A stretch of DNA of 64,000 bases from a virus. Its lineage: Duplodnaviria > Caudoviricetes. The stretch lies in IMG/VR virus record IMGVR_UViG_3300017963_000189; one strand, written 5' to 3'. The translations under genes were made by a program, and so were the position numbers. Each line of letters starts with the position of its first letter. Position 1 is the stretch's first letter. Below, piece by piece: positions 6,790 through 57,495 of the stretch. The notes beneath the pieces are model-generated. The model saw nothing but the letters and a program-made list of their open reading frames with translations, made no database searches and was not told where the DNA came from.

Positions 6790-8380
6790 TTACAGGATCA
6801 CTTTGTACTGAATAATCAACATCAGGATCATCTTCCATATGACCCACATTTACACTACCACCTGCTTGAAATGGCGACCGTATAATCATTCCTTGACCCT
6901 CTTTCTTTACTTTTCTTACAGCATCCTCAAAATACGCTCGTATCTCGTCATTTGTTACGGGTGATTTCTTTTTTTCCTCTATCTCTTTCTCAAACGCTTC
7001 TTCGTCCTTTTTCTCAGGTTCCGTCCTCATTTTATCAAAAAACTCGTTTTTGTGTTTTACCTTTTCTACCGCATCTATAATCTTTTCTTTTGGTATGTCG
7101 CCCGATTTCGCAGGCTCTTGAACTATTCGTTCTTTTGTTGGTTCATCTTGTCCTACCTTTTTCGTCGTTTCCTCTAATGCCTCAGAAAAATCTTCGTCTA
7201 AATCCTCTTGACTTTCAATGAAATGTTTAAATAACTCAGTTCCTGCTTTTAACTCTTTCTCTACCTCAACTTCATTTTCCATTTCCTCAATTTCGTCGTC
7301 TACCTCTTGAAGAAAATCCTTTTCCTCTTTTATCTTCTTTTCTATGTTGTCAAATGATTCTTCTATCGGTTTCGCAGATTCTATACCCGGTTTATCAAAA
7401 ATAATTTCATCGTCCTCGTCGTCCTCTTGTGGTATATCATAACCACCAAATTCACCTACCTCTAAACCAATGTGTTCTTGTGGTATAGGATCAAATGAAC
7501 TTGTAATAGAAAAATCTCCCGGTAACGCAGGATCAATACCTACACTATATTCTTTCTCTTGTCTACCTTTCATTATCACAGAGTTATAGGCGACAATCAA
7601 AGCAATAGCTAATGGATCAAACACAAATACAATGACCAATGTAAACCATTTCATTACATTGTCCATCGTCGTATTGAATATACGTGCCATATAAACCAAA
7701 GGCCCAACGTCTACACCGGTGTCTATCATTTCAAGTTTTTTGTCCGAAATGTCCTGTTCTACGGTAGATAATCTCACATTCGTTGTATCAAGTTGTTCGG
7801 TGTAACGTGAAATGTTGTCGTCTATTCTCGTTAATTCTTCGTCATATCTCTTGTGTGCTTGACTATTTCTCCACGCTCTATACTTTACAGAATTAGAATC
7901 CGTCGCTGTATTGTTAGCAGCTATCTCACTGTTACGATTCTCAATGGTTGATTGTCTCTCCGCTCTCAGTGTCGCTATATCACTTTTCAATCTTTCTCGT
8001 TCATCCACTAAATTTTGTTTTCGTTGATCCAATACTTGAGCTTGACTATTGATTTTATCTAATCCTATCGTCGCCCCTTGATAACTGTTAGTCAAATAAC
8101 CATAAATACCACCGGACGTTACTAACATCAATACCAATACTGCTATCGATAAATACGTCTTTAATCCCCAACCTGTTGTTTTCCAATACCTATACAAAAA
8201 TGACGCGGTGATGATCTTGGCGAATTCCAAGGCACCCATGGCGATTGCCACGTATAACATTTCCCCTGAGTATAACATGGATAAACCCGTTACAGAAAAG
8301 ATCGCTGCAGCAGCAGCTACCAGTAACGCTGAAAATCCCAATAAGGTTGTGAATATTTTTGAGTTAGTTTTTTCGAGCAT
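6779..8380 (-). CDS. Membrane-anchored coiled-coil protein with acidic tail
   Basis: Three N-terminal TM segments, coiled coil, fourth TM (VFVFDPLAIAL), long D/E/K-rich tail. Confidence 0.75.
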   Translation of the reverse strand: MLEKTNSKIFTTLLGFSALLVAAAAAIFSVTGLSMLYSGEMLYVAIAMGALEFAKIITASFLYRYWKTTGWGLKTYLSIAVLVLMLVTSGGIYGYLTNSYQGATIGLDKINSQAQVLDQRKQNLVDERERLKSDIATLRAERQSTIENRNSEIAANNTATDSNSVKYRAWRNSQAHKRYDEELTRIDDNISRYTEQLDTTNVRLSTVEQDISDKKLEMIDTGVDVGPLVYMARIFNTTMDNVMKWFTLVIVFVFDPLAIALIVAYNSVIMKGRQEKEYSVGIDPALPGDFSITSSFDPIPQEHIGLEVGEFGGYDIPQEDDEDDEIIFDKPGIESAKPIEESFDNIEKKIKEEKDFLQEVDDEIEEMENEVEVEKELKAGTELFKHFIESQEDLDEDFSEALEETTKKVGQDEPTKERIVQEPAKSGDIPKEKIIDAVEKVKHKNEFFDKMRTEPEKKDEEAFEKEIEEKKKSPVTNDEIRAYFEDAVRKVKKEGQGMIIRSPFQAGGSVNVGHMEDDPDVDYSVQSDPVNEK

Positions 8381-8382
8381 TT

Positions 8383-8562
8383 TTAATCTTGATTTTCTCT
8401 ATTGAGTAAAGCCAGGATTTGTCCTAACTCGTGTTGAATTTTACCGTAAGATTCATGAACCTGTTCTTTTGTTAACGCATCCTTTTCAATGGAACGTTTT
8501 AACCCTTCTACGTTGTCGGTTAATCTTTCAATCTTTTCTACTATAATATCTTTAAATCTCAT
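8383..8562 (-). CDS. Small hypothetical protein (59 aa, MRFKDIIVEK...)
   Basis: Read manually, below ORF-track cut-off; AAAGGA SD. Confidence 0.55.
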   Translation of the reverse strand: MRFKDIIVEKIERLTDNVEGLKRSIEKDALTKEQVHESYGKIQHELGQILALLNRENQD

Positions 8563-8607
8563 AACATATCCTTTCCGTTTACGTTTTACACATACTTATA
8601 TAAATAT

Positions 8608-8635
8608 TAAACTATTGAAAAATCAAATAGTTCCA
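8608..8635 (-). promoter_or_regulatory. Putative alternative-sigma promoter TGGAAC-N16-AGT
   Basis: One of five similar elements. Confidence 0.45.
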
Positions 8636-8641
8636 CAAAAT

Positions 8642-8672
8642 AAAAAACCCGCCCTACACAAATGGGGCGGGT
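8642..8672 (-). terminator. Intrinsic terminator downstream of rsr
   Basis: CCCGCCC-N10-GGGCGGG followed by T6. Confidence 0.85.
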
Positions 8673-8726
8673 CTCGGCTAAGTTCATAGCTCTCCCAGAG
8701 TCCTCCAGTCTCCCGGCTGTTCTGGA

Positions 8727-10370
8727 TTAGAATTTATCCATAATAAAGTCACTCATTATAGATGGCGCGTTTGTGTCGAAACCAACAACGTCGAGTGAGC
8801 TTCTATCCTTTGGATCAGCAATAGTGAAACCATTCGATGCCATACCAACTACAACTAACTTGACATCGTGACCCACTTTATGACGATAACGATCCATTGC
8901 TTCGCTTGGTTGGATATTTCCTGCCCAAGTTTCATTATCGGTATATACAAAAATCGCGTCAAAATCCTTGTTCATACCAGCGGCCCACAATGCTGGTAAA
9001 GCACAATCAGTTCCACCAAAATCTAACCTGCTAACGTAATTATCCACATCATTCAAACTCATTCTATCGTGTAACTTCAATTCCGTTACATTAGTTAACG
9101 CTTGACCAGAACCATACCAACCACCACCGGTAAATCCAATAATACCCCAGTTCTTTTCAGCTTTCATCGTTACCATAGCCATTGCGGACGATGCGGAACG
9201 ACAACTGATAAATGGAGCGTTTTGAATACCACTACCCATAGAACCAGATACATCCAAAGCAATCAAGATTCTCTTACCCGTAGACTCAATGTTCTTGAAT
9301 GCTTTGTAAAATCCTGCGTCCAAAGCGGAAACGATTTGTGGTACAACGTTCCAAGTATTAGACCCACGAAAACCACGTCCTGCTTCATAGGTTTTCAAAG
9401 CCATTAATAATTGAATAGGATGTACACGTGCTTTCTTTAACGCTTCATCATTAGTGATCTTGTCAACCACTAAGTTGATTTCGTCAAAGTTACCACTTTC
9501 CAAGATACCAACTTTGGATAAGTTACCTAAATTACGAATTAACGCAGTCATAGGCATTGTTGGTAACAACGCTTCGTATACTTTCTTTCCTAAGAATTGT
9601 GTAGGAATAGCTTCCCGTGGCAAGTTATATTCCTTAATCAAGTTCACAATTTCCTTTTCATTTTCGGCTTTCTTTGCTAACTCAAAACCATAAATCATTG
9701 GAATTTTCCTATACTTCTCAATGTCGCCATTGATTCCTTGAGTAATCCAATGGAATACCTTGTTCATATCTTCATTGACGGCTTGTGCATGAGACTTACG
9801 TAAAATGTCACGGTGACTCCACCCGTCACGAGATTGATACTTGACTACTTGATACGCCAACTTGTTGATGTCCTTGTCGGTGTACCACTTGGCGAATGCC
9901 TTACGTAATCCACGACCCCAACCACGCATCGAGTTTACGAACTCTGTGAAATGGAATAAATGAGTACCAATACGTGCTACTTTACTCAAGTTGTCCAAAG
10001 CGTACTTCTTAGCTTCGTCAGTTCCATAGGAAGCAACCATCGCTAATACGAATAACGCTGGATCATTATTAGGTGCACGACCCTCTAAAGAAATCTCAAC
10101 TACACGATTTACAACTTCAATGCCATCTTCCTTGATTAACTTTTCAATGTTCTTAGCATTCTTCTTAGTTAACTTTTGCGCGGATGCGTAATAAGTTGGT
10201 TGATCGCTACCCAATACTAAGAAACGATTTAACTTATCCCACTTGTCCAACTTAAATGAGACGCCACCGCCATAATTCTTAGCCATATCTTTCTTACGAC
10301 CCTTGATTTTTTGGTTTTGTGGAGTTGCTACCTTAGTAGACTTGTTTAAAGTTTTGGTATAATTTTGCAT
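8727..10370 (-). CDS. rsr: Ro60/Rsr TROVE-domain RNA-binding protein with vWA domain
   Basis: FLVLGS..TYY, SRDGWSHRDIL, PMTALIRNL, IALDVSGSM, GGTDCALP, YTDNETWAG, FTIADP; start MQNYT at 10370 after AGGAGG. Confidence 0.95.
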   Translation of the reverse strand: MQNYTKTLNKSTKVATPQNQKIKGRKKDMAKNYGGGVSFKLDKWDKLNRFLVLGSDQPTYYASAQKLTKKNAKNIEKLIKEDGIEVVNRVVEISLEGRAPNNDPALFVLAMVASYGTDEAKKYALDNLSKVARIGTHLFHFTEFVNSMRGWGRGLRKAFAKWYTDKDINKLAYQVVKYQSRDGWSHRDILRKSHAQAVNEDMNKVFHWITQGINGDIEKYRKIPMIYGFELAKKAENEKEIVNLIKEYNLPREAIPTQFLGKKVYEALLPTMPMTALIRNLGNLSKVGILESGNFDEINLVVDKITNDEALKKARVHPIQLLMALKTYEAGRGFRGSNTWNVVPQIVSALDAGFYKAFKNIESTGKRILIALDVSGSMGSGIQNAPFISCRSASSAMAMVTMKAEKNWGIIGFTGGGWYGSGQALTNVTELKLHDRMSLNDVDNYVSRLDFGGTDCALPALWAAGMNKDFDAIFVYTDNETWAGNIQPSEAMDRYRHKVGHDVKLVVVGMASNGFTIADPKDRSSLDVVGFDTNAPSIMSDFIMDKF

Positions 10371-10410
10371 GATTCGACCCTCCTGTTTAAAGGTAAATGT
10401 TATATAAACT

Positions 10411-10439
10411 AAAAAACCCGACAAGATATTTGTCGGGTT
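10411..10439 (-). terminator. Intrinsic terminator between Y-like RNA and rsr start
   Basis: AACCCGACAA-N5-TTGTCGGGTT followed by T-run. Confidence 0.75.
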
Positions 10440-10459
10440 ACTATTGTAAACAAAATATC

Positions 10460-10523
10460 TTGGATAAAAAGTTGTTGATGTTATTTTTACGTGTGATCGC
10501 GATAATCATCAACTACGACCCAA
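10460..10523 (-). ncRNA. Y RNA-like RNA A (64 nt)
   Basis: TTGGGT-CGT-AGTTGATGA-TTATC ... CATCAAC ... TTTT-ATCCAA; adjacent to rsr. Confidence 0.7.
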
Positions 10524-10594
10524 ATTATGTCTGAGATTGTAGGTTTTACAATCTCGTTACTGTTTGTACACATGGTACATCAGCTAAAATATAA

Positions 10595-10916
10595 AAAATT
10601 GGCGGGATTCGCATCTACCCGCAAGCGTTCATTCAGACTTGAATTATTCGAGCATGTCGGTTAACAACCGTCGTTATTAACCTTATGACAGGAAGAACCT
10701 ATCTATTTATCTTCCAACGTCCACTAGCAGTAGCTCTATTGCCAATTATAATGGGGATTTTAGCAGACGAACCATTGATATGTTTTTTTCAACCCCAAGA
10801 GTTGATCCCACTCCCATATCGACAGTCTCTTATTCTCACTGAACTCGCAACCGACTCCCAGAACTTTTCAGTCTGGGCTATCGTACCTTACTCACCTGCA
10901 TGAGTTATTCAGTCAC
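10595..10916 (-). ncRNA. Unidentified ~320-nt structured RNA
   Basis: Non-coding; multiple hairpins (ACTCA/TGAGT, CCCAGAC/GTTCTGGG, GGAAGA/TCTTCC); 5' GACTGAAT can pair with 3' ATTCAAGTC; preceded by boxA-like site. Confidence 0.55.
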
Positions 10917-10920
10917 AAAA

Positions 10921-10932
10921 TTTTCAAAGATC
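10921..10932 (-). promoter_or_regulatory. boxA-like antitermination element (GATCTTTGAAAA)
   Basis: Resembles rrn boxA; precedes ncRNA. Confidence 0.45.
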
Positions 10933-10941
10933 AAAATAAAA

Positions 10942-11030
10942 TGATGGATAAAGGTGGCTAACGAGATTGACGCGCGTCACGTCCTGCGTTTTTTTCGATT
11001 AAAAGATAACGTTAAACCGACGACCCATCA
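10942..11030 (-). ncRNA. Y RNA-like RNA B (89 nt)
   Basis: TGATGGGT-CGT-CGGTTTAACG-TTATC ... CGTTAGCC-ACCTTT-ATCCATCA. Confidence 0.7.
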
Positions 11031-11058
11031 AGTCCTGTATCAATCAGGACTTGTTTAG

Positions 11059-11132
<74 letters not shown>

Positions 11133-11155
11133 ATACAATATGTTATATATACTTA

Positions 11156-11183
11156 TATACTATTCAACTAAATAAAAGTTCCA
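11156..11183 (-). promoter_or_regulatory. Putative alternative-sigma promoter TGGAAC-N16-AGTATA
   Basis: Directly upstream of tRNA-fMet / Y-like RNA B. Confidence 0.5.
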
Positions 11184-11200
11184 TTTTTCTCAAAAAAAAA

Positions 11201-11440
11201 TTTAGGATAAGGAACGACCAGAGAGAGTTGATTTTTCCGTGAAACTATCACGTCTTTTTAACGTTGTTGTTAAAGACTCTCAACGGGGCTTCTTAAACTT
11301 GCTCCCACACAAGAAACTCTAAGACCGCGAAAACTTTCTTCGGTTAAGATTTTACGACGCGGCTAGCAGATCGAGTTTACAATCTACCTTTCATCCTTTT
11401 AGAATTATCTGTAAGGTAACTCTGCATCAACGACCCTAAA
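11201..11440 (-). ncRNA. Y RNA-like RNA C (240 nt, large internal domain)
   Basis: TTTAGGGT-CGT-TGATGCAGAG-TTACC ... CTCTGGTCG-TTCCTT-ATCCTAAA. Confidence 0.65.
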
Positions 11441-11452
11441 AGTTGAGAAAAA

Positions 11453-11464
11453 TTTTCAAAGAAC
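11453..11464 (-). promoter_or_regulatory. boxA-like element (GTTCTTTGAAAA)
   Basis: 12 nt upstream of Y-like RNA C. Confidence 0.45.
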
Positions 11465-11512
11465 TATTTGTACTACCATATATAAGTATATACAAATTTT
11501 CGAAACGTATCT

Positions 11513-11543
11513 ATTATACTACTTTTTGTGAAAAAAAGTTCCA
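11513..11543 (-). promoter_or_regulatory. Putative promoter TGGAAC-N17-AGTATAAT
   Basis: Heads the Y RNA/rsr unit. Confidence 0.5.
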
Positions 11544-11569
11544 TTTTTTGAAACTTTTTTTATTTTTTA

Positions 11570-11923
11570 TCATCCGTCTCGCCATGCTTCAGAATAAGTA
11601 GAAAATTCAAGATCATCACCGAACTTTTCCTTGAGTTTCTTTTCTACTCTCGCCTTAAATTCGGCTCCAGTTTCATCGTCTTTAACTTGATCCCACGACA
11701 CACCAATATAACAACCATAATCTCCGTCATAAGGCCATAGACATTCCATATCAAGTTCTTTTCCTAATTCATATCCAATTTCCCATACATCAGTATCATC
11801 GTCGTCGTTTTCAACTTCCATATTTAAAGCCTCACGAAATTCATCTTCCGATTCAAAACAAATTCCATAAATCAAGAATGAAGATGTGGAACTATTACTT
11901 ACAAACCCATTTCTTACTTTCAT
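11570..11923 (-). CDS. GFVSNSS-motif protein 8
   Basis: Begins MKVRNGFVSNSSTSSF; acidic body. Confidence 0.8.
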   Translation of the reverse strand: MKVRNGFVSNSSTSSFLIYGICFESEDEFREALNMEVENDDDDTDVWEIGYELGKELDMECLWPYDGDYGCYIGVSWDQVKDDETGAEFKARVEKKLKEKFGDDLEFSTYSEAWRDG

Positions 11924-11936
11924 ATTGTTTTCCTTT

Positions 11937-12314
11937 CTAACAATCTACTTCTACTTCAGCAACATTTTTAGGAAGTTTATCTTTAGCAGAATACCAAAGT
12001 TCACCTGGCCAGATTCCATCTACATTATCATATCCATATTTTTCTTCAAATTCTTCCTCAGACAAATCTTCATCTTCAGGTAATAATGTCACAGAAAAAT
12101 CTTCATAAAAACACCAATTACCTGTCATTCCACTAAAAATAACTACATCAAAATCACCAATTTTTTCTTCCTTTCGTCCTAAATAACTATTATCAATGAC
12201 TTGTTTCTCATAAACATCTAAATTGTCTCGCCATTCTTTTTCTTGTTCAGGTGTCATTACAATAGTAAAACTTGAACTTGAACTGTTTGATACAAAACCA
12301 CTACGTATTTTCAT
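11937..12314 (-). CDS. GFVSNSS-motif protein 7
   Basis: Begins MKIRSGFVSNSSSSSF. Confidence 0.8.
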   Translation of the reverse strand: MKIRSGFVSNSSSSSFTIVMTPEQEKEWRDNLDVYEKQVIDNSYLGRKEEKIGDFDVVIFSGMTGNWCFYEDFSVTLLPEDEDLSEEEFEEKYGYDNVDGIWPGELWYSAKDKLPKNVAEVEVDC

Positions 12315-18149: not shown

Positions 18150-19352
18150 TTATGTCACACTTAGTATGACATCATTGTTCGTGTCGCCAAAAACGGTGGC
18201 GAAAATCGCTTCCTTCTTGTCAAGGATATAATAATATACATCAACCTGTTCGCTCGTCTTTCTCAATGTTTGATTCTTGTAATGTACATCTTTACCCTCT
18301 TTTATGATCTTATCATAATGTTTCAATCTTTCCAAGTTCTCATTGTTTGTAACTCTAAAATGTTCCTGAGCTCTTGACTTCATTGGTTTATTGATTATAT
18401 CTTGTCGTTTTAAACCGGTCAACTTCTCAAAACTTTCATTCGCATCAAGTATAATGTAATCGACCACTCTATTCTTTTTATCATAAATAAGTTTTTTGTA
18501 GGCTATCGCATTGAAACTACGATGAAAAAGTAACTTGTATTTTCTCTCGTTTTCTTTGGCTTGTTCAGTGAGAAATTTTGTTTTTGTTATGTCTTGAATC
18601 GTTTGTATAAAATATAATGGTTCATCGTTTGATGTTTTTTGTAAAGTGGTTGTAACCAACGCCCAGAAGTAGAAACCATTATATTTCTTGAATCGTTTCT
18701 CTACTTGAACAAAATCTTGACCACCATCTAATAACCTATTACAAATATAATCAACCGATTCCAGATCAGATTTATATGTTATATCTTTTGGAGTAAGATC
18801 AAGTATGTCGCCACGAGTGTAACCCAATAGGTTACAAAATGTGTCGTTTACATCCATGTATTTCATGTCCATGTCTACTATGGCTTGAGCGACACCGGGA
18901 TTGTTGAATAATCCATCGAATTTTTCTTGTTCGATTTTCTCAGTGTTCGCTAACATCCTCTCGTTCGTTACATCACGACCAACTAAAATAAGGTATTCAT
19001 CGTCGTATAAACCATGAGCTGGATCATCTTGTGATGGAGTGTTAGATATACGATGTATATAATACTTACATGATACTAACTTAGTATCACTATTTTTTGT
19101 TTGTATAAAGAATTCCTGTTCACCATTGAATGTTTCATTGAACATTTTTTGTAATACTTTTTCGGTGTTGTCCTTATCATCTTCTATTACTAATGATGAA
19201 AAAGGTTTTTCCTGCATTTCATGATGATTATATCCCAACGCCTTAAAAGTATTGTTATTTACTTCTTGTACTCGTTTGAATTCATCAATGATGAAAATCA
19301 TTGCATCAACTTCATTTAATAAGTTGTATAAAAAATCTTTATCATTTAACAT
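18150..19352 (-). CDS. Multi-PAS domain protein without output domain
   Basis: Three PAS/PAC repeats (VNNNTFKALGY, VNDTFCNLLGYT, ANESFEKLTGL). Confidence 0.85.
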   Translation of the reverse strand: MLNDKDFLYNLLNEVDAMIFIIDEFKRVQEVNNNTFKALGYNHHEMQEKPFSSLVIEDDKDNTEKVLQKMFNETFNGEQEFFIQTKNSDTKLVSCKYYIHRISNTPSQDDPAHGLYDDEYLILVGRDVTNERMLANTEKIEQEKFDGLFNNPGVAQAIVDMDMKYMDVNDTFCNLLGYTRGDILDLTPKDITYKSDLESVDYICNRLLDGGQDFVQVEKRFKKYNGFYFWALVTTTLQKTSNDEPLYFIQTIQDITKTKFLTEQAKENERKYKLLFHRSFNAIAYKKLIYDKKNRVVDYIILDANESFEKLTGLKRQDIINKPMKSRAQEHFRVTNNENLERLKHYDKIIKEGKDVHYKNQTLRKTSEQVDVYYYILDKKEAIFATVFGDTNNDVILSVT

Positions 19353-20753: not shown

Positions 20754-20933
20754 TATTTATTCCTTTATTTTATATTTCTTTTTCGCCAATTTAAGATTTT
20801 GTGCGGTCGCTTTATCTTTTTCTTCATCACTTGTACAACCATAACATACATCTTCTGACATACCAAAAATAACTAAATTGATTTCTTCACCACACTTTTT
20901 ACATATCATAATTTATTCCTTTATTTTGTGTAG

Positions 20934-21004
20934 TCCGCCCACCGGGAATCGAACCCGAATAAGTGAGTTTAGAAGTCACTGTTCTACCATTGAACTATGG
21001 GCAG
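20934..21004 (-). tRNA. tRNA with CUA anticodon (amber suppressor)
   Basis: GTGAC-TTCTAAA-CTCAC; standard numbering from the D stem puts CTA at 34-36 (C31:C39 mismatch); normal D and T arms. Confidence 0.75.
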
Positions 21005-24875: not shown

Positions 24876-25001
24876 TGGTATTTGTAGGATTCGAACCTAA
24901 ATTCCGGTGTATCAGACCGACGTGTTACCGTGAGCGGTTATCCAATAAGATTAACCGGTCTCTTATTGGCTTCCCTTTGTGCTCTATTACACTACCATAC
25001 C
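24876..25001 (-). tRNA. tRNA-Ile(GAT) with ~57-nt insertion in the D loop
   Basis: GTGTAA[insert]GGTAACAC, anticodon arm TCGGT-CTGATAC-ACCGG, T loop TTCGAAT. Confidence 0.7.
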
Positions 25002-25010
25002 ATTATACTC

Positions 25011-25109
25011 ACCCCGTCACTGCCAGGTTTTACTCAACTGCGCGGGTCGAACACTCCAAACCTACCGCGAATCGGTTTTGGAGACGGTGGAATTGAACCA
25101 CCACGGGAT
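25011..25109 (-). ncRNA. Circularly permuted tRNA-like RNA
   Basis: Terminal stem ATCCCGT/ACGGGGT, then T arm GGTGG-TTCAATT-CCACC, then internally closed acceptor-like stem CTCCAAA/TTTGGAG. Confidence 0.55.
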
Positions 25110-25112
25110 TAG

Positions 25113-25184
25113 TGGGAGCACCAGGAATCGAACCCGGAACTGGAGGTTAAGAGCCAACTGCGTTCCCAATTACGCCATACTCCC
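25113..25184 (-). tRNA. trnK: tRNA-Lys(CTT)
   Basis: Cloverleaf, loop CTCTTAA. Confidence 0.88.
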
Positions 25185-25189
25185 ATAAC

Positions 25190-25275
25190 TACTTTTCACC
25201 AAACTATATCAAAAATACCTACTTTTCACGATCAGTAACCATTTTTCACCAAATGACCTTGAAAATACCTACTTT
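25190..25275 (-). repeat. Degenerate direct repeats (aaatacctacttt / ttttcacc)
   Basis: 2-3 imperfect copies in tRNA spacer. Confidence 0.45.
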
Positions 25276-25276
25276 G

Positions 25277-25355
25277 TGGGAGCAGTCGGGATCGAACCGA
25301 CGACACCCCGGGCTTCAACCGAGTGCTCTACCATTCTAATCTGAGCTACACTCCC
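25277..25355 (-). tRNA. trnF: tRNA-Phe(GAA), long D loop
   Basis: Cloverleaf, loop TTGAAGC. Confidence 0.88.
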
Positions 25356-25365
25356 ATATATAAAA

Positions 25366-25482
25366 TAAAATCGATCTTCCTCACATCCCTTTACTCTTGG
25401 AAGAATTGATAGAATACGTCTATCTCTTGATAAATGATATATAGGCCAGGGTTTGGCGACCCTTACACCATCAACGATTTTA
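25366..25482 (-). ncRNA. Unidentified structured RNA (~117 nt)
   Basis: Terminal stem TAAAATCG/CGATTTTA, internal hairpins AGGGT/ACCCT and GATAGA/TCTATC. Confidence 0.4.
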
Positions 25483-25486
25483 TAGT

Positions 25487-25604
25487 TGCGCGAGTAGGAT
25501 TCGAACCTACATCCTTCCTTTCCAATAAGATAACGTTTCTCCAGCGGCCCTGTTAGGACAAAAACGAAGCAACGGTTTTAGATGTTACCATTACACCATC
25601 GCGC
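25487..25604 (-). ncRNA. tRNA scaffold carrying a permuted Y-type helix in place of the anticodon loop
   Basis: Acceptor GCGCGA/TCGCGC, D arm GGTGTAATGGTAACATC, T arm GTAGG-TTCGAAT-CCTAC; insert CGTTGCTTCG-TTTT-GTCCT-AAC-AGGGC-CGC-TGGAGAAACG-TTATC. Confidence 0.7.
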
Positions 25605-25613
25605 AAATTAAAA

Positions 25614-25826
25614 CTATTTTTTTACTACCCTATATTGTGTTTTGCGGTAATTCTTCCAATTCTTTTTCTCTCGTTTTGGAAGATACCACCATCCACAACC
25701 ACCATATATACTACCGGTTCTTTGTAAACAAATCATACAAGGTACGTCTCTTACGTGTTTCCATTGTAATTTTTTGTAGACACTACTATTTGTAGTATTC
25801 TTTAGCGTTTCTCTTTTTCTCGTCAT
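25614..25826 (-). CDS. Small basic Cys-containing protein (paralog A)
   Basis: TTNSSVYK...CMIC...NWKNYRKTQY; start re-set to MTRKRE. Confidence 0.65.
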   Translation of the reverse strand: MTRKRETLKNTTNSSVYKKLQWKHVRDVPCMICLQRTGSIYGGCGWWYLPKREKKNWKNYRKTQYRVVKK

Positions 25827-25868
25827 TTTGATTCTCCTTATGTAATGTTTGACCACTACTAAGGAAAA

Positions 25869-26081
25869 TCATTCTCCATATTCATCATACATTATTACCT
25901 TGTATTGTGTTTTTCTGTAATGTTTCCAATTTTTACGATAATACGTTCTTTGGTTTTCATTACGATTATATTTACAACGTGAACATGAAATGATACATTG
26001 TAGTTCACGATAACGTTTTAACGCTAAGTTGTAAATACGACTGTTAGTTGTTGTATCAACTATTCTTTTGTATTTCGCCAT
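25869..26081 (-). CDS. Small basic Cys-containing protein (paralog B)
   Basis: TTNSRIYN...CSRC...NWKHYRKTQY. Confidence 0.65.
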   Translation of the reverse strand: MAKYKRIVDTTTNSRIYNLALKRYRELQCIISCSRCKYNRNENQRTYYRKNWKHYRKTQYKVIMYDEYGE

Positions 26082-26206
26082 TTGGTTTCTCCTTGAGTTA
26101 AAATTTACTTAACTCAAACGAAACCACTCCCTACATAATGTGTAAAATATGTCATATTATCTCCCGTTTTGACACATAATTGGTAATATATGTCACTTTA
26201 TTTTTG

Positions 26207-26289
26207 TGGTAAGGGTAGGATTTGAACCTACGAACCCTTGCGAGACCGGTTTTACAGACCGGCGCCTTTAACCACTCGGCCACCCTACC
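26207..26289 (-). tRNA. trnY: tRNA-Tyr(GTA)
   Basis: Type II cloverleaf, loop CTGTAAA. Confidence 0.93.
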
Positions 26290-26320
26290 AAATCTTATTC
26301 TAAACCAATACTATATCTCA

Positions 26321-26473
26321 TTAGTAATCAACTTTCCCGCGACAAGCTTTACGGGATTGTTCACGTTTTTTGTTTTTGATTTTACGAACACGGTAACGTC
26401 CATCAAAGAAACCATCACGTTTCTGGATTTCTCTCAAAACACCTTTGTTCATATTTATGTTTACATTACTCAT
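26321..26473 (-). CDS. Small basic hypothetical protein
   Basis: Start re-set to MSNVN (overlaps upstream stop). Confidence 0.55.
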   Translation of the reverse strand: MSNVNINMNKGVLREIQKRDGFFDGRYRVRKIKNKKREQSRKACRGKVDY

Positions 26474-27269: not shown

Positions 27270-27276
27270 AAAAAAA

Positions 27277-27391
27277 ATGGGTAAGTGTCGAATAAGATAA
27301 ATCTCCCAAAGGGAGTTGTGGGGCTTGATCCCACGGCGATCCAGATTCGTAAATCCGACCGCCAACCAGGTAACCTTATCCATCGACCCAC
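27277..27391 (-). ncRNA. Y RNA-like RNA with tRNA-like internal domain
   Basis: GTGGGT-CGA-TGGATAAGG-TTACC ... TCTTATTC-GACACTT-ACCCAT; internal arms CGGTCGGA/TCTGGATCG, GTGGG/CCCAC, CTCCC/GGGAG. Confidence 0.7.
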
Positions 27392-27395
27392 TTAG

Positions 27396-27588
27396 TTCTC
27401 AGAGTTGGAATCGAACCAACTTCCGTACAAGGTTTATTGTAGTTACTTACTATTCACACATTGTTTATTTTTCAGGCCTCAATGTGTGGGCTTCACTACA
27501 ATCTCACTTGATTCTACTTAGATTCGGCTGATCGCGATCAGCAGGAACGATCTAAGTCAACGTGTCTTACCGCATAAACGATCCAAGA
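27396..27588 (-). ncRNA. tRNA scaffold (193 nt) with two inserted hairpins, one a permuted Y-type helix
   Basis: Acceptor TCTTGGA/TCTGAGA, T arm GTTGG-TTCGATT-CCAAC; insert ACTTAGAT-CGTTCCT-GCTGATC-GC-GATCAGC-CGA-ATCTAAGT. Confidence 0.65.
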
Positions 27589-27589
27589 G

Positions 27590-27664
27590 CGGAACCGACG
27601 GGACTTGAACCCGCAAGCCTTCGCCTTGACAGGGCGATGTGCTAACCAATTACACCACGGCTCC
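27590..27664 (-). tRNA. trnD: tRNA-Asp(GTC)
   Basis: Cloverleaf, G73. Confidence 0.93.
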
Positions 27665-27703
27665 AAATAAGAACAGTTTCACATCTTGTTCAGGATGTAA
27701 AAA

Positions 27704-28123
27704 TTACTGCAACAACGTCAGGTTCAGGAATGGGAAATGTCTTTTCAACTCAACTTCGTGTTTCAATAATACCTTAGCTTCCGGTTCCGCTTTCAATAAG
27801 ACATCTAAAGAATCGTAGTAAGTAACATCGTTGACTTCCGCTTCCCAGCCGTAGCAAGAACAGTGTCCGTCATACAATACTGCCCATCTACCATCTTTAG
27901 TTATTCCTATTTCAGTAGCGCCTTCTTCGTAATCATCCAAGTAAAACCCATCATACATTATCAACCACACTACTTCAACACCTTTCAACGCAAATTGTAA
28001 ACGATCAATGTTATCAACTCCAGATTCAATAGCATATTCCCCGTAGAATCCGTTGTCATAACTTTCCTGCAACGCTTTTTGTTGATAGTTGTACGCTTTT
28101 CTCCAAGTTTGTAAAGTTTTCAT
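27704..28123 (-). CDS. Hypothetical protein in tRNA array
   Basis: AGGAG SD; GHCSCYG motif. Confidence 0.7.
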   Translation of the reverse strand: MKTLQTWRKAYNYQQKALQESYDNGFYGEYAIESGVDNIDRLQFALKGVEVVWLIMYDGFYLDDYEEGATEIGITKDGRWAVLYDGHCSCYGWEAEVNDVTYYDSLDVLLKAEPEAKVLLKHEVELKRHFPFLNLTLLQ

Positions 28124-28219
28124 GGCAATTCTCCTTATGTTAGTTTATGGTTTCTAAGTAGTTAAGAATTGCTTAACTTTACCATACCTATCATTTGGAT
28201 TGTCGCCTAAAAAATTTAC

Positions 28220-28231
28220 TTCTCAAAGATC
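28220..28231 (-). promoter_or_regulatory. boxA-like element (GATCTTTGAGAA)
   Basis: Variant of elements at 10921, 11453 and 32083. Confidence 0.35.
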
Positions 28232-28238
28232 AAACTTG

Positions 28239-28311
28239 TGCCCCCACTTGGATTCGAACCAAGAACTCACCGCTTAAAAGGCGGGTGCGTTACCATTGAC
28301 GCCATGGAGGC
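28239..28311 (-). tRNA. trnK: tRNA-Lys(TTT)
   Basis: Cloverleaf, loop CTTTTAA. Confidence 0.92.
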
Positions 28312-28313
28312 AA

Positions 28314-28553
28314 TTACATACTATTTTTTATCGCACTTACTATTTGGTAAAAATTCATTATCGTCCAATTCTTGTATACCATCACTTCACCATCAGAATA
28401 ATGAACTACCATTTTTATTTTTCCATAAAATTTACATATTTTGTCGCCGTTCTCGTTGATAAATGTGACCTTGTTATTCTCTACAATAAAATCACACTCA
28501 ACTTCAATGGCGACCCACTTGTAAAAATCGTAAAAAACTCTATCATTGTCCAT
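28314..28553 (-). CDS. Hypothetical protein
   Basis: Downstream of promoter, AAGGA SD. Confidence 0.6.
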   Translation of the reverse strand: MDNDRVFYDFYKWVAIEVECDFIVENNKVTFINENGDKICKFYGKIKMVVHYSDGEVMVYKNWTIMNFYQIVSAIKNSM

Positions 28554-28578
28554 CGTTTATTCCTTTAACGTATATATA

Positions 28579-28607
28579 AATATACGAAAAAAATGTAAAC
28601 TTGTCAA
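28579..28607 (-). promoter_or_regulatory. sigma70-type promoter (TTGACA-N17-TATATT)
   Basis: Exact match. Confidence 0.8.
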
Positions 28608-28627
28608 CTGTTTTTTCAGATTTTTTG

Positions 28628-28699
28628 TAGGCCTGCAAGGTAACGATCCTTGTTCTCCCGCTTAAAAGGCGGGTGCTTCACCATTAAAGCTTCAGACCC
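28628..28699 (-). tRNA. trnK: tRNA-Lys(TTT), atypical T loop ATCGTTA
   Basis: Cloverleaf. Confidence 0.85.
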
Positions 28700-28707
28700 A
28701 TAATTTG

Positions 28708-28780
28708 TGGAGCTACTCGGATTCGAACCGAGAACTCAGGCTTGCAAGGCGAGCGTAGTTCCCATTACTACCATAGCCCC
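28708..28780 (-). tRNA. trnA: tRNA-Ala(TGC)
   Basis: G3:U70, loop CTTGCAA. Confidence 0.9.
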
Positions 28781-28790
28781 ATATCATTTG

Positions 28791-28863
28791 TGGAGACGAT
28801 CGGAATCGAACCGACCACAGTCTGCTTGCAAGGCAGTCTCGCCCCCTTGGCACATGCGCCCCC
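28791..28863 (-). tRNA. trnA: tRNA-Ala(TGC)
   Basis: G3:U70, loop CTTGCAA. Confidence 0.88.
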
Positions 28864-28915
28864 ATAAAAGACAATCGTTTTAGGTTATCTCAACTCAAAC
28901 AACCTTTTTTACTTG

Positions 28916-28986
28916 TCCGCACAGAGAGAATCGAACTCCCATTTACTGGATATAAGCCAGGTGCTCTACCGTTGAACTATGCGCGG
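28916..28986 (-). tRNA. trnI: tRNA-Ile(TAT)
   Basis: Cloverleaf, loop CTTATAT. Confidence 0.88.
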
Positions 28987-28990
28987 ATAA

Positions 28991-29067
28991 ATGAACAAGT
29001 ATTGTATTGGAAAGCGGGCATTAGCCCAACTCCATCATGAAAGGATAACCCAATACTTTCGGCTCAT
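28991..29067 (-). ncRNA. Y RNA-like RNA E (77 nt)
   Basis: ATGAGC-CGA-AAGTATTGGG-TTATC ... CCAATAC-AATACTT-GTTCAT. Confidence 0.75.
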
Positions 29068-29070
29068 TAG

Positions 29071-29141
29071 CAAGGGCGACAGGAATCGAACCCGCCACAC
29101 CAGGATTTGGAGTCCCGGTCGTCACCTTGACATACGCCCCT
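29071..29141 (-). tRNA. trnW: tRNA-Trp(CCA)
   Basis: Cloverleaf, loop CTCCAAA, G73. Confidence 0.88.
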
Positions 29142-29149
29142 ATAATTTG

Positions 29150-29232
29150 TACCGACACTCGGATTCGAACCGAGACGGGATTTCTCCCACTCGCTTTTGA
29201 AACGAGCGTGTCTACCATTCCACCATATCGGC
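29150..29232 (-). tRNA. trnL: tRNA-Leu(CAA)
   Basis: Type II cloverleaf. Confidence 0.92.
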
Positions 29233-29235
29233 ATA

Positions 29236-29339
29236 ATGTCAAGGATTTTCACTACACAAAAGTTGACATATCTATGTAGTAAAGGCGTTTTACGTTTGTC
29301 GGTCTAAGTCAACCTCGACCTTTCCCACGACCTTGACGT
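29236..29339 (-). ncRNA. Structured RNA, possible Y-like variant with pseudoknot
   Basis: Terminal stem GTCAAGG/CCTTGAC followed by T-CGT; GTTGAC/GTCAAC crosses ACTACAT/GTGTAGT. Confidence 0.45.
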
Positions 29340-29346
29340 ACCTTAG

Positions 29347-29429
29347 TAGCACTGGAGAGATTCGAACTCTCATGTATGTTTCAACCGCCGGGTTTAAGCC
29401 GACTGCGTATGCCATTCCGCCACAGTGCC
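29347..29429 (-). tRNA. trnL: tRNA-Leu(TAA)
   Basis: Type II cloverleaf. Confidence 0.92.
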
Positions 29430-29439
29430 ATATATTTTG

Positions 29440-29512
29440 TAGCACCACCCGGATTCGAACCGAGATCTGTGGGGCGAAAACCCACTATCCTAAACCATTA
29501 GACGATGATGCC
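29440..29512 (-). tRNA. trnE: tRNA-Glu(TTC)
   Basis: Cloverleaf. Confidence 0.9.
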
Positions 29513-29517
29513 ATATA

Positions 29518-29601
29518 ATGAGCAAATAGTTGTCAAGGAATAACCCCGAAGGGCTATTGGATTCGAACCAATTTAACCGATAACCTTAACATTCGGCTCA
29601 T
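29518..29601 (-). ncRNA. YrlA-like Y RNA F with T arm and UUCG-closed acceptor-like stem
   Basis: ATGAGC-CGA-ATGTTAAGG-TTATC, ATTGG-TTCGAAT-CCAAT, AGCCC-TTCG-GGGTT, CCTTGACA-ACTATTT-GCTCAT. Confidence 0.8.
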
Positions 29602-29604
29602 TTG

Positions 29605-29679
29605 TCGGGATAGACGGATTCGAACCGCCGATCCCATGCTCCCAAAGCATGTGCGTTAGCCAGACTACGCTATATCCCG
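29605..29679 (-). tRNA. trnP: tRNA-Pro(TGG)
   Basis: Cloverleaf. Confidence 0.93.
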
Positions 29680-29686
29680 ATAAAAG

Positions 29687-29758
29687 TCTGAGCGGCTGGG
29701 CTCGAACCAGCGCGTTCCCGGTTCCAAGCCGGGGTTCTTCCAACTGAACTACGCCCAG
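29687..29758 (-). tRNA. trnP: tRNA-Pro(TGG)
   Basis: Cloverleaf, loop CTTGGAA. Confidence 0.85.
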
Positions 29759-29764
29759 ATAATA

Positions 29765-29836
29765 AAACGAACAAGAGTGACCAACGAGTTTTGTTCTTTT
29801 TGACAGGAAAGATAATCGTCAATCTTCGGCTCGTTT
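29765..29836 (-). ncRNA. Y RNA-like RNA G (72 nt)
   Basis: AAACGAGC-CGA-AGATTGACGA-TTATC ... TCGTTGGT-CACTCTT-GTTCGTTT. Confidence 0.75.
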
Positions 29837-55233: not shown

Positions 55234-57495
55234 TTAAGTTCCATCTAATATTTCTCTTATCTTTCTCGCCAATGATGTCGGCGTCACAGGTTTCTGAATA
55301 AAATTAGTTCCAGGATCTAATACCCCACGATGAACTATTGTGTTATCGGTGTAACCGGACATATACAAAACTTTTAGATTTGGTATAAAATCACTTAACT
55401 GGATCGCAAGTTCTCTACCGTCCATTCTCGGCATCACGACATCAGTCACCAACATATTTATTTTTGTTTGATTATTTTTCATCACTTCTATAGCTTCAAT
55501 ACCATTGGACGCACAAATAACTTTATATCCCATATCTCTTAACGCGTCACAAAGTAATAGACGAACTTCTTTTTCATCTTCTACTAATAACAATGATTCA
55601 TTTCCACTATAATCTAATATCTCTCCATTTATTTGTATTTCGTTTTTTGTCTCTCTATCCACTCTTGGCAAATATACCTTGAACGCCGTTCCTTGTCCAA
55701 TCTCACTATATACCCAAACAAAACCACCACTTTGTTTTATTATTCCATACGCCGTAGACAATCCTAAACCAACTCCCTTACCCATTTCTTTTGTCGTAAA
55801 AAATGGTTCAAAGATTCTTTCTTTTGTCGCCATATCCATTCCAACACCATCATCCGTAACAGAAAACATTATGTAACGACCTTTATCAATCATCTTTTGT
55901 TTTCGTTCAACGTGATCTTCATCAAAATATATATTTTTTGTCTCAAGTCTAATCAATCCTACATCTTGTTCAGGTATAGCATCCCGAGCATTGATTATCA
56001 TATTCATCATAACCAAACTAATTTGATTGACATCAACAAAACAATTACCCAAATCAGGATCAAGATGTTTAGCGATTTCTATATCTTCTCTTATCAGTGT
56101 CGCCAAAACTTTTATTTCATTTTCAAGAATGTTATTTAAGTTAACAACTTCTGGCGTCAAAATTTGTTTTCTACTAAAAGCAAGAAGTTGTTTTGTAAGT
56201 GCCTCGGCTCTATCAGCCGCATTATCTATTTTTTCTAATTTTGTTTGTAAATATATATGTGGTTCTGTTTCAGGACATTTTTGACTTCTCCTAATAAGAA
56301 GTTCAGTGTGACCACGAATAACGGTAAGAATGTTATTGAAATCGTGAGCAACTCCACCCGCTAATAAACCAATAGCTTCCAATTTAGCAGCTTGTCGTAA
56401 TTGTTCTTCAAGATTTAATTTTTCTGATATATCATAAAAAATTACAAGTATAGATTGTTTATTTTTATATATTATTGGTTTAGCAACAACTTCAACATCT
56501 ATGATACTACCATCTTTTTTAAAGAATTTTTCGTCTAACGGTTCATTAGTTTCTCCTGTTTCTATCATATTTTTTATTCTTCCTTTAACAACACTTCTAT
56601 AATCAGGATGAACATAATCCATTACTTTGTCGCCAACCAAATCTTTATAATTGTCAGCTCCAATTAATTGACATGCAGCAGGATTGGCGAAAACAATCTC
56701 CATACTTTTTATATTGTAAACTATGATTGAAGATGGTAAAAGTTCCACTAAATCTTTATATTGTCTTTCAAGAGATTCAAGTTTTAGTTTTTCACTTATA
56801 TCATTGAACAAAACCATACTTGCTTTTTGATTCTTATAAGTTATTAATTTAGAAATCACTTCCATTTCAATAGCTTCTTTTTTATCATGTGATAAAAATT
56901 TCATTCTACTCGCTGGACAATATCCTTTTTCTTGTAATTCCTTTATTCGCCGTTTTCCTTCCTCAATAGAATCAGGATGGACGGATTCAAAAACACTTTC
57001 AGGTTTATCATCGTCCAATGGACGATTTATCATTTTTCTCGCTTGTTTGTTGGAAAATAATTTTTGTTTTGTTTTTAAACTATAAACTGCCATTCCGATT
57101 GGCAAAAGTTCAACTAAATCTTCATAGTATTGTTCTTTTTCTATTTGTTTAGTAATATCTATACCAAAACTTAAAAATGTATTATTTGGAGTTATTTCTG
57201 CAGAAAATAAACCATGACGTGTTTCACCATTTTTATGTAATATGGTAAACTCTCTATTTAATACTTTACCTTTTTCACGTAATTCATTACTAATCGCGAT
57301 CCGTTCTTCCGGATACTTCCACATATTAAATTCAAGAGAAGTTTTACCAATTATTTCTTCTCGTGCATAACCGGTCATTTCACAAAATAAATCATTTACT
57401 TTTATAAACTTTCCAGTGTCCAATTCGCTATATGCTACCGCAATAGGTAACGAACCATATACTTTATCAAATGAAATTGTTATATCGTCGTTCAA
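55234..57495 (-). CDS. Hybrid sensor histidine kinase (3 PAS + HisKA/HATPase + receiver)
   Basis: LAGGVAHDFNNIL, NMIINARDA, FEPFFTTKEMGKGVGLGLS, LLVEDE, VTDVVMPRMDG, FIQKP. Confidence 0.95.
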   Translation of the reverse strand: MNDDITISFDKVYGSLPIAVAYSELDTGKFIKVNDLFCEMTGYAREEIIGKTSLEFNMWKYPEERIAISNELREKGKVLNREFTILHKNGETRHGLFSAEITPNNTFLSFGIDITKQIEKEQYYEDLVELLPIGMAVYSLKTKQKLFSNKQARKMINRPLDDDKPESVFESVHPDSIEEGKRRIKELQEKGYCPASRMKFLSHDKKEAIEMEVISKLITYKNQKASMVLFNDISEKLKLESLERQYKDLVELLPSSIIVYNIKSMEIVFANPAACQLIGADNYKDLVGDKVMDYVHPDYRSVVKGRIKNMIETGETNEPLDEKFFKKDGSIIDVEVVAKPIIYKNKQSILVIFYDISEKLNLEEQLRQAAKLEAIGLLAGGVAHDFNNILTVIRGHTELLIRRSQKCPETEPHIYLQTKLEKIDNAADRAEALTKQLLAFSRKQILTPEVVNLNNILENEIKVLATLIREDIEIAKHLDPDLGNCFVDVNQISLVMMNMIINARDAIPEQDVGLIRLETKNIYFDEDHVERKQKMIDKGRYIMFSVTDDGVGMDMATKERIFEPFFTTKEMGKGVGLGLSTAYGIIKQSGGFVWVYSEIGQGTAFKVYLPRVDRETKNEIQINGEILDYSGNESLLLVEDEKEVRLLLCDALRDMGYKVICASNGIEAIEVMKNNQTKINMLVTDVVMPRMDGRELAIQLSDFIPNLKVLYMSGYTDNTIVHRGVLDPGTNFIQKPVTPTSLARKIREILDGT

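Follow-up and report, generated by a model that had tools for sequence, protein, structure and literature searches.

Y RNAs and their partner protein Ro60 are conserved from bacteria to humans. In the bacterial kind known as YrlA (Rfam RF02553) the RNA ends lie in the Ro stem, the acceptor stem is closed by a loop, and the T arm stands 5' of the D arm. Two motifs mark YrlA, GNCGAAN0-1G close to the 5' end and a YUAY with which the V region begins; the acceptor stem of M. smegmatis YrlA is cleaved by RNase P, and CCA is then added (PMC4201824). Its resemblance to a circularly permuted transfer RNA (tRNA) and its possible origin from a dimeric tRNA have been discussed by Wang et al. 2018 (10.1101/312249). 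Here, a gene at 25605..25486 (minus strand) is described from the window, that is, the whole stretch of 64,000 nucleotides (nt) analysed from IMG/VR virus record IMGVR_UViG_3300017963_000189. We consider it likely that this gene encodes a Y RNA connected like a tRNA, a circular permutation of YrlA, which would be processed as tRNAs are and bound by the phage Ro60. An earlier note on this DNA, made from the letters and open reading frames, did not recognise the RNA as a described class; likewise, no paper on a Y RNA with tRNA ends was found in the literature searched, outside which fell two key reviews and Burroughs and Aravind 2016.

The gene (Table 1) is matched end to end by the Rfam tRNA model RF00005 (41.9 bits; gathering score 29), in agreement with the intact acceptor, D and T arms read in the earlier note. 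Canonical tRNA features present are an acceptor stem of 7 base pairs (bp) with discriminator, the D arm, the T arm and the nucleotides of the tRNA-type tertiary pairs (G18 G19, U54 U55 C56, 15:48); a 5-bp anticodon stem with 7-nt loop and conserved anticodon was not found, the 17 nt of the anticodon arm being replaced by 65 nt in the Rfam alignment. No call was made by ARAGORN. In the D-arm region, 19 nt are identical to the tRNA-Gln of the same phage (31108-31179), and the trailer ACUA is kept in five orthologs. The earlier note had the right place with limits (25487-25604) one base short at either end; its anticodon-stem equivalent, CATCT/AGGATG, was rejected, because its strands run into ACAU of the D stem, with which it competes, and into the T stem's first G, and because the orthologs do not preserve its register.

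Table 1 Features of the gene at 25605..25486, of the related RNAs and Ro60 in the window, and of the syntenic orthologs. RNA position i corresponds to window position 25606-i. R1, covariance model built from the window clade; R2, covariance model built from 14 diverse members; HMM, hidden Markov model; V, variable.
Feature	Position	Strand	Evidence or remark
Whole Y RNA gene of tRNA topology, 120 nt	25486..25605	-	Rfam tRNA over full length; R1 146.7 bits, R2 120 bits
Acceptor stem, 5' strand, UGCGCGA	25599..25605	-	Paired to 25493-25487; 7/7 acceptor pairs covary class-wide
D arm, GUGU-AAUGGUA-ACAU, with G18 G19 and A15	25582..25596	-	Rfam alignment
C26 and A-rich linker UAAAAC	25575..25581	-	Alignment; similar to CUUAAA, the linker behind the D arm in Catera YrlA
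Helix 2, strand equivalent to 3' strand of ordinary Y RNAs, CGUUGCUUCG	25565..25574	-	Pairs with 25543-25534 at 9/10 positions; conserved internal mismatch; 9/9 modelled pairs covary
U-rich side of internal loop, UUUUU, facing CGC	25560..25564	-	(Near-)invariant in five orthologs; class-wide U/A-rich, ending UUUG
Closing stem GUCCU/AGGGC with loop AAC	25547..25559	-	Constrained fold; 4/4 modelled pairs covary; loop varies in length and sequence
GCCG, GNCG core of presumed Ro60 contact motif	25545..25548	-	Motif scan; UACG in ortholog L035
Helix 2, strand equivalent to 5' strand of ordinary Y RNAs, UGGAGAAACG	25534..25543	-	HMM of ordinary Y 5' strands matches 25551-25529
UUAUC, matching YUAY at start of YrlA V region	25529..25533	-	Invariant in all five orthologs; PMC4201824
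Small V hairpin UCUU-AUUGGAA-AGGA, variable-arm equivalent, no anticodon arm	25516..25530	-	Third pair covaries (U.G/U-A/G-C); loop not conserved
T arm, GUAGG-UUCGAAU-CCUAC	25494..25510	-	Rfam alignment; 3/5 pairs covary across the class
Acceptor stem, 3' strand, UCGCGCA, and discriminator A	25486..25493	-	Sequence; no encoded CCA, trailer begins CUA
Ro60/Rsr ortholog, presumed protein partner	8727..10424	-	Pfam TROVE 2.5e-39, vWA_Ro60 2.7e-56
Three Y-like RNAs of ordinary topology upstream of Ro60	10460-10523, 10942-11030, 11201-11440 (span 10460..11440)	-	Folds, motifs
Four Y-like RNAs in tRNA cluster	27277-27391, 28991-29067, 29518-29601, 29765-29836 (span 27277..29836)	-	Folds, motif scan
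Ortholog in L013	1625-1747		Synteny
Ortholog in L031	1144-1267		Synteny
Ortholog in L035	3572-3695		Synteny
Ortholog in L037	1236-1359		Synteny

When the insert was folded with the acceptor, D and T stems held fixed, CGUUGCUUCG, UUUUU, GUCCU, the loop AAC, AGGGC, CGC and UGGAGAAACG were obtained in this order, CGUUGCUUCG and UGGAGAAACG forming a second helix of 10 bp with one G.A mismatch. The fold with the two strands of the Y helix in reverse order, as drawn in the earlier note, was thus reproduced, and its strands match the local Y-like family. The loop of the closing stem occupies the place held by the 5' and 3' ends in ordinary Y RNAs, and a conserved small hairpin of 3-4 bp begins at UC of UUAUC. 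Read from 5' to 3', the gene is composed of the acceptor 5' strand, the D arm, the Y 3'-type strand, the loop, the Y 5'-type strand, UUAUC, the V region, the T arm and the acceptor 3' strand.

Seven hairpin-closed Y-like RNAs, recognised by their folds and motifs, are present in the window, and a closing stem, G(U/C)CG, a second helix of 9-10 nt and UUA(U/C)C are common to all; the one at 10942-11030 is the closest sequence relative of the insert, and orthologs of those upstream of Ro60 are found at L010 16407 and 16991. The motif G[CT]CG-N9-13-TTAYC was observed 14 times on the minus strand (1.5 expected), the seven Y-like RNAs and the gene at 25605..25486 included, and all matches fall on the transcribed strand. 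In a search with an HMM trained on 15 ordinary Y 5' strands, from which the gene had been left out, 25551-25529 ranked sixth in the window (9.8 bits), above two of the training members, and was the only non-training match to score with the family; the next unrelated match reached 4.4 bits. The complementary strand lies downstream in the ordinary Y-like RNAs and upstream in the gene, where the closing stem is capped by a loop, and this arrangement is that of a circular permutation. The G(U/C)CG and UUA(U/C)C of the family are consistent with the published YrlA signature (PMC4201824). A search for 8-mer complements was too permissive to discriminate between strand orders. As separate observations, a GUCG...UUAUC match is also present at about 37617 (minus), outside the tRNA cluster, and a lone T-arm element (GUUGGUUCGAUUCCAAC) at 27393-27463 (minus) stands just upstream of the Y-like RNA at 27277-27391 and is kept in L035.

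With YrlA the RNA has in common the Ro60-associated GNCG helix, the YUAY start of the V region, and tRNA-like D, T and acceptor elements with the tertiary-pair nucleotides; both occur in genomes with Ro60, often just upstream of it on the same strand, and are common in phages. The connectivity differs: the RNA has its ends at the acceptor stem, AAC closes its Ro-type stem, and the D arm stands 5' of the T arm. The YrlA of phage Catera, located just upstream of the Catera Ro gene, begins with the closing stem, GCCGAGA, the helix and UUACC; a V region rich in purines, the T arm and the closed acceptor stem follow, and then the D arm, the CUUAAA linker, the helix and the closing stem. The tRNA-ended RNA is a rotated order of the same blocks: GCCG and UUAYC occur in both, as do a purine-rich V region and, behind the D arm, a linker rich in U/A, the V and linker sequences being similar. 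After permutation, the sequence is aligned better with Catera YrlA than in its native order or as shuffles (z 3.5-4.3 for three orthologs, about 2 for two). Opening a YrlA in its acceptor stem and closing it in its Ro stem gives the same strand order; the reciprocal permutation suggested in the earlier note therefore stands, and it recurs in 16 contigs.

Orthologs in related phage contigs were reached by working outward from the neighbouring proteins to the syntenic place in metagenomic contigs. They are about 90% identical, whereas the adjoining small open reading frame (ORF) is 48-57% identical at the protein level. In the set of five (the window and four others), 95.8% of cells are paired, as against 37-50% with a slid partner, and five pairs change on both sides. 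Pair states are C-G / A-U / U-A in helix 2, U.G / A-U / C-G in the closing stem and U.G / U-A / G-C (compensatory) in the small hairpin; a T-stem pair has changed on both sides; and 15:48 is A:U once (window), G:C three times and A:C once. The loops of the small hairpin (AUUGGAA, AUUAGAA, UCAUGC, UAUCAGAAA, ACUGAUGAA) are not conserved, and it therefore holds no anticodon.

Further searches in the same phage group and beyond gave the following. In the INPHARED cultured-phage DNA, matches were confined to the neighbouring tRNA parts; an IMG/VR scan anchored on the neighbouring tRNA-Phe found G001 only, and an IMG/VR scan for a tRNA-Gln-type D arm with a long insert gave no matches. Two sets of hits were discarded: one unrelated high-GC tRNA cluster, L012, from a metagenome pattern scan anchored on the same tRNA-Phe, and 15 matches, all by chance, to the IMG/VR pattern TTTTGTCC...GGGYCGY...TTAYC. 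On the contig of G001, a candidate at L010 2106-2277 with the motif GGGUCGA has a fold unlike that of the class and reaches only 12 bits with R1; it comprises a tRNA-like 3' half (T arm and an acceptor strand ending CGCAACUAAAU, as in the gene at 25605..25486) and two possible 5' acceptor strands, and may be a rearranged relative of that gene.

The design belongs to a wider class. In IMG/VR, the pattern GCCG-N10-14-TTATC-N10-30-GGTTCGAWTCC gave at least 119 loci; by a crude pairing test many of these look like ordinary YrlA (closed acceptor hairpin after the T arm) and several have tRNA topology. With R1 and R2 together, 20 tRNA-ended Y RNAs of 125-136 nt were found in 16 contigs, members scoring 70-122 bits with R2 and ordinary tRNAs at most 50 bits; the covariance-model search of phage genomes proposed in the earlier note thus shows the class to recur. 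Tandem pairs occur in L053, L098, L124 and L153, and a 3' ACCA is encoded in some members. In an alignment of 21 rows, which was itself fitted to the model, 96.1% of cells are paired (39-46% with a slid partner), 26 of 29 pairs change on both sides, the covarying pairs include 9/9 of helix 2 and 4/4 of the closing stem, and the covariation score of 0.851 (0.252 in shuffles) was reached by 0/500 shuffles. Members found by synteny or by model alone show the variants GUCGA, UACG and UUACC; UUAUC is kept in the pattern-independent members, except for UUACC in the second copy of L098. Variants of the GNCG region across the class are GCCGAC, GCCGC, GCCGG and GUCGA, with UACGA in L035. In Catera, Phosso and Sixama, named phages with Ro60, R2 recovered ordinary tRNAs and nothing else. 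YrlA candidates were defined by Chen et al. 2014 by their position near Ro60 on the same strand, and matches overlapping annotated tandem tRNA genes were dropped (PMC4201824); this filter may have hidden the tRNA-ended class, and annotation is likely to take genes of this kind wrongly for odd or intron-containing tRNAs, or Y RNA searches that mask tRNA genes to lose them.

The class is linked to Ro60 in the genomes. A TROVE protein is encoded in 8 of the 11 searchable IMG/VR records that carry the RNA, including 5/5 of those at least 98% complete, the three negative carriers being fragments 10-29% complete; among cultured phage records, a Ro60 match is found in 366 of 50,697. The Ro60 of the window is 43-44% identical to annotated Ro-like proteins of actinophages. 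In G002, G004, G007, G008 and G011 the RNA lies 0.3-2.5 kilobases (kb) upstream of Ro60 on the same strand, within the distance of about 4 kb used for YrlA, and in the window, G003, G006 and G009 it lies 15-100 kb from Ro60. L098 derives from G004, a complete genome of 110 kb; there, tRNA-ended and simple Y RNAs alternate over the 430 nt that precede the Ro60 start codon, two of each, beginning with a tRNA-ended one. Two tandem tRNA-ended Y RNAs are located at L053 1021-1286, 330 nt upstream of Ro60; at their junction the first copy's 3' acceptor strand is able to pair with the 5' acceptor strand of the second, so that the junction reads like YrlA and bears on the interconversion of the two topologies.

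Several points weigh against a Ro60-bound permuted YrlA. The motifs GCCG and TTATC were built into the IMG/VR pattern, and their conservation in that subset is partly ascertainment; the same holds for the link with Ro60, the pattern having been made from Y RNA features. G001, the nearest relative examined that encodes Ro60 (65% identical), has no copy in the 78 kb examined with R1 and R2, so that the RNA would be dispensable or replaceable. The copy in the window lies 15 kb from Ro60 (Ro60 downstream, same strand), beyond the distance used for YrlA, and is not adjacent to it. Where YrlA has GNCGAAN0-1G, the window has GCCGCUG, with GNCG and the trailing G kept and AA replaced by CU, and UACG of ortholog L035 departs from the GNCGAA consensus. 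The Rfam YrlA model, which is bound to the YrlA topology and has a gathering threshold of 69 bits, gave no match at E <=10 on the Y-like RNAs (8000-12000 and 27270-27588); this is a weak negative, because the YrlA of Catera itself scores just 36 bits with that model. A closing loop in the place of free ends could hinder the binding of Ro60 if the protein needs termini. Lastly, the DNA of this large T4-like phage, whose 309-kb contig includes the window, comes from metagenomes alone (two sequencing runs, both of DNA, from sediment and seawater).

Among the explanations that compete with a permuted YrlA, a real tRNA-shaped RNA whose hairpin serves something other than Ro60 is in our judgement unlikely. 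Such an RNA would recruit or decoy a host tRNA-targeting nuclease, a tRNA-modifying enzyme or the RNA repair enzymes of the phage, or the hairpin would merely stabilise it; the distance of the window gene from Ro60, the copies of G006 and G009 at 40-100 kb, the three carrier contigs without a TROVE gene, and the Rnl1-type RNA ligase and the HD plus AAA_33 kinase-like protein encoded in the window (Pfam) are in its favour. The three contigs are, however, the short fragments mentioned above, all carriers of near-complete length encode Ro60, the RNA stands directly upstream of Ro60 and on its strand, interleaved with simple Y RNAs, in five carriers, and the helix motifs are common to the simple Y RNAs. 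Quite improbable is a precursor that is cut again and re-joined, by the phage RNA ligase or through tandem read-through, to a YrlA-type or circular RNA. The window clade is single-copy, the acceptor stems are perfect 7-bp helices covarying as intramolecular pairs, and some members encode 3' ACCA like mature tRNAs, even though there are the tandem copies in four contigs, the acceptor strands of L053 that can pair between copies, the RNA ligases encoded nearby and the permuted-tRNA-like processing of YrlA RNAs raised by Wang et al. (10.1101/312249).

Two other explanations are contradicted by the conservation pattern. The loop AUUGGAA of the small hairpin, with 7 nt, U33, UGG and A37 in the window, might be taken for the anticodon arm of a tRNA-Pro(UGG) from which an intron or insertion is removed; this we hold to be highly improbable. 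The loop is not conserved among the orthologs and its stem has just 3-4 bp; the insert is situated between position 26 and the small hairpin and not at 37/38; its 48 nt are far below the size of group I introns, and no splicing endonuclease route is known in bacteria (10.1101/312249); no other part of the gene is as constrained and covarying as the inserted hairpin; and two ordinary tRNA-Pro(UGG) genes are already present in the window (ARAGORN). Splicing to a normal tRNA, the outcome that the earlier note had set against its own reading, fails on the same ground, no conserved anticodon arm being left after removal of the 48-nt hairpin. A decaying tRNA pseudogene with a chance hairpin would account for the silence of ARAGORN, yet it is scarcely credible beside orthologs that keep about 90% identity next to an ORF with 48-57% protein identity, compensatory changes in every helix and 20 members in 16 contigs. 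The tRNA-ended form is thus real and widespread, and it belongs to the Y RNA / YrlA kind and forms no new category.

For the permuted YrlA proposed here, the following course of events is envisaged. The 5' end would probably be freed by RNase P from a long transcript of the tRNA cluster, and a 3' processing step and then CCA addition would follow, a proposal with precedent, since M. smegmatis YrlA is both cleaved by RNase P and given a CCA (PMC4201824). In a promoter and terminator scan of 25000-26400 no signal exceeded shuffles, and the absence of a local promoter or terminator standing out fits co-transcription with the tRNA cluster. Acceptor stem, D arm, T arm and the purine-15:pyrimidine-48 pair would build the L-shape of a tRNA; at the place of the anticodon arm a helix of about 10 bp with one mismatch, an asymmetric internal loop (U-rich against GNCG-N) and a short loop-capped closing stem are predicted. 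The predicted shape is that of YrlA, only the chain breaks being different (acceptor stem open, Ro stem closed). From the helix in common with YrlA, the phage Ro60 would be expected at the region of GNCG and the U-rich loop; tRNA-binding factors would then have access to the tRNA body and its free acceptor end, or this body would guard the RNA from exonucleases.

A tentative extension, which we regard as doubtful, is that the RNA is a CCA-tailed and possibly aminoacylated adaptor delivering the phage Ro60 to the machinery of tRNA ends (EF-Tu/ribosome, synthetase, CCA enzyme, repair ligase/kinase), and that it links tRNA and YrlA in evolution, a Ro60-binding anticodon arm having come first and a tandem duplication having then given the permuted YrlA. 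Under this same extension, the route to YrlA by tandem duplication would be simpler than the published dimeric-tRNA model. More generally, because tandem copies contain YrlA in register, the tRNA-ended gene offers a tangible intermediate for the suggested descent of Y RNAs from tRNAs. A tRNA-ended form also bears on the role of the tRNA-like half of bacterial Y RNAs and on the origin of Y RNAs; the same predicted shape with the opposite connectivity indicates that selection keeps the fold and not the position of the ends; and a version with a free acceptor end makes CCA addition, charging and EF-Tu binding directly testable. Nature would here keep a protein-binding helix, presumably for Ro60, grafted onto a tRNA scaffold.

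Likeness to other known RNAs is partial. In Y RNAs generally the Ro60 helix is made by the RNA's own ends, whereas here it is an internal hairpin with a loop of 3-6 nt. The processed YrlA of M. smegmatis is also a Y RNA with a free CCA end; it consists of two base-paired fragments, whereas the tRNA-ended RNA is one encoded chain for which no internal cut is needed. Yrn1 of Deinococcus radiodurans shows features of a tRNA (T arm), and Ro60 (Rsr) is its proven partner; its Ro stem stands with the ends at the acceptor position and its anticodon arm is short (PMC4201824), whereas here the Ro-type helix stands at the position of the anticodon arm. In the permuted tRNA genes of red algae and some archaea and in two-piece transfer-messenger RNA (tmRNA), a tRNA-shaped fold likewise occurs in two circular permutations; those are decoding RNAs restored by processing, whereas YrlA and the tRNA-ended RNA both appear to be end products and neither is decoding. 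The species 1 and 2 RNAs of phage T4 (rnaC, rnaD) are stable, of about 120-140 nt and of unknown function, and belong to a T4-type tRNA cluster, and the 3' end of rnaC is a T arm with an acceptor-like strand; as relatives they were rejected, R1 giving only 8.6 bits. To our knowledge, T4 has no Ro60. In rnaD (L036 3054-3172, minus), GGGUCGC and GUCGUCGG resemble the Y-family motif, which may be coincidence.

Other RNA elements lie near the gene. Directly downstream, a structured RNA of about 115 nt at 25368-25481 (minus) is closed by AAAAUCG/CGAUUUU and contains GGGUCGCC; it is kept in L031, L035 and L014 with compensatory changes and is absent from L013 and L037, and since L014 lacks a tRNA-ended Y RNA, the structured RNA is a module of its own. 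A tRNA-Phe(GAA)-like gene at 25277-25355 (minus), with a D loop 7 nt over the model, scores 47.1 bits with Rfam, is missed by ARAGORN and is kept at L010 2016-2093. Matches to the tRNA model with long inserts were obtained at L010 4746-4936 (191-nt gene whose variable region holds about 120 nt), L010 2285-2392 (108-nt gene with a 58-nt middle and encoded CCA) and L013 215-410 (196-nt match); several kinds of tRNA-scaffolded RNA thus seem common in this phage group. Repeats of GGTGAAAA(A/G)TAG(G/T)TAT between the tRNA and RNA genes (window 25200-25275, minus; L013 1780-1880; L014 1725-1800) recur in relatives; they may serve the phage as promoters or as processing signals.

The genes of the window run on the minus strand throughout, and more than 40 of them are tRNA genes (ARAGORN, Rfam). 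At its gathering thresholds, Rfam gave no RNase P RNA anywhere in the window. A PAS-domain protein and a PAS / histidine kinase / receiver hybrid, unusual in a phage, are encoded at 18150-19352 and 55234-57495 (minus), and a tRNA with the anticodon CUA (amber stop codon), labelled Pyl by ARAGORN, is located at 20933-21004 (minus) and is kept in the relative G001 (L001 5891-5966).

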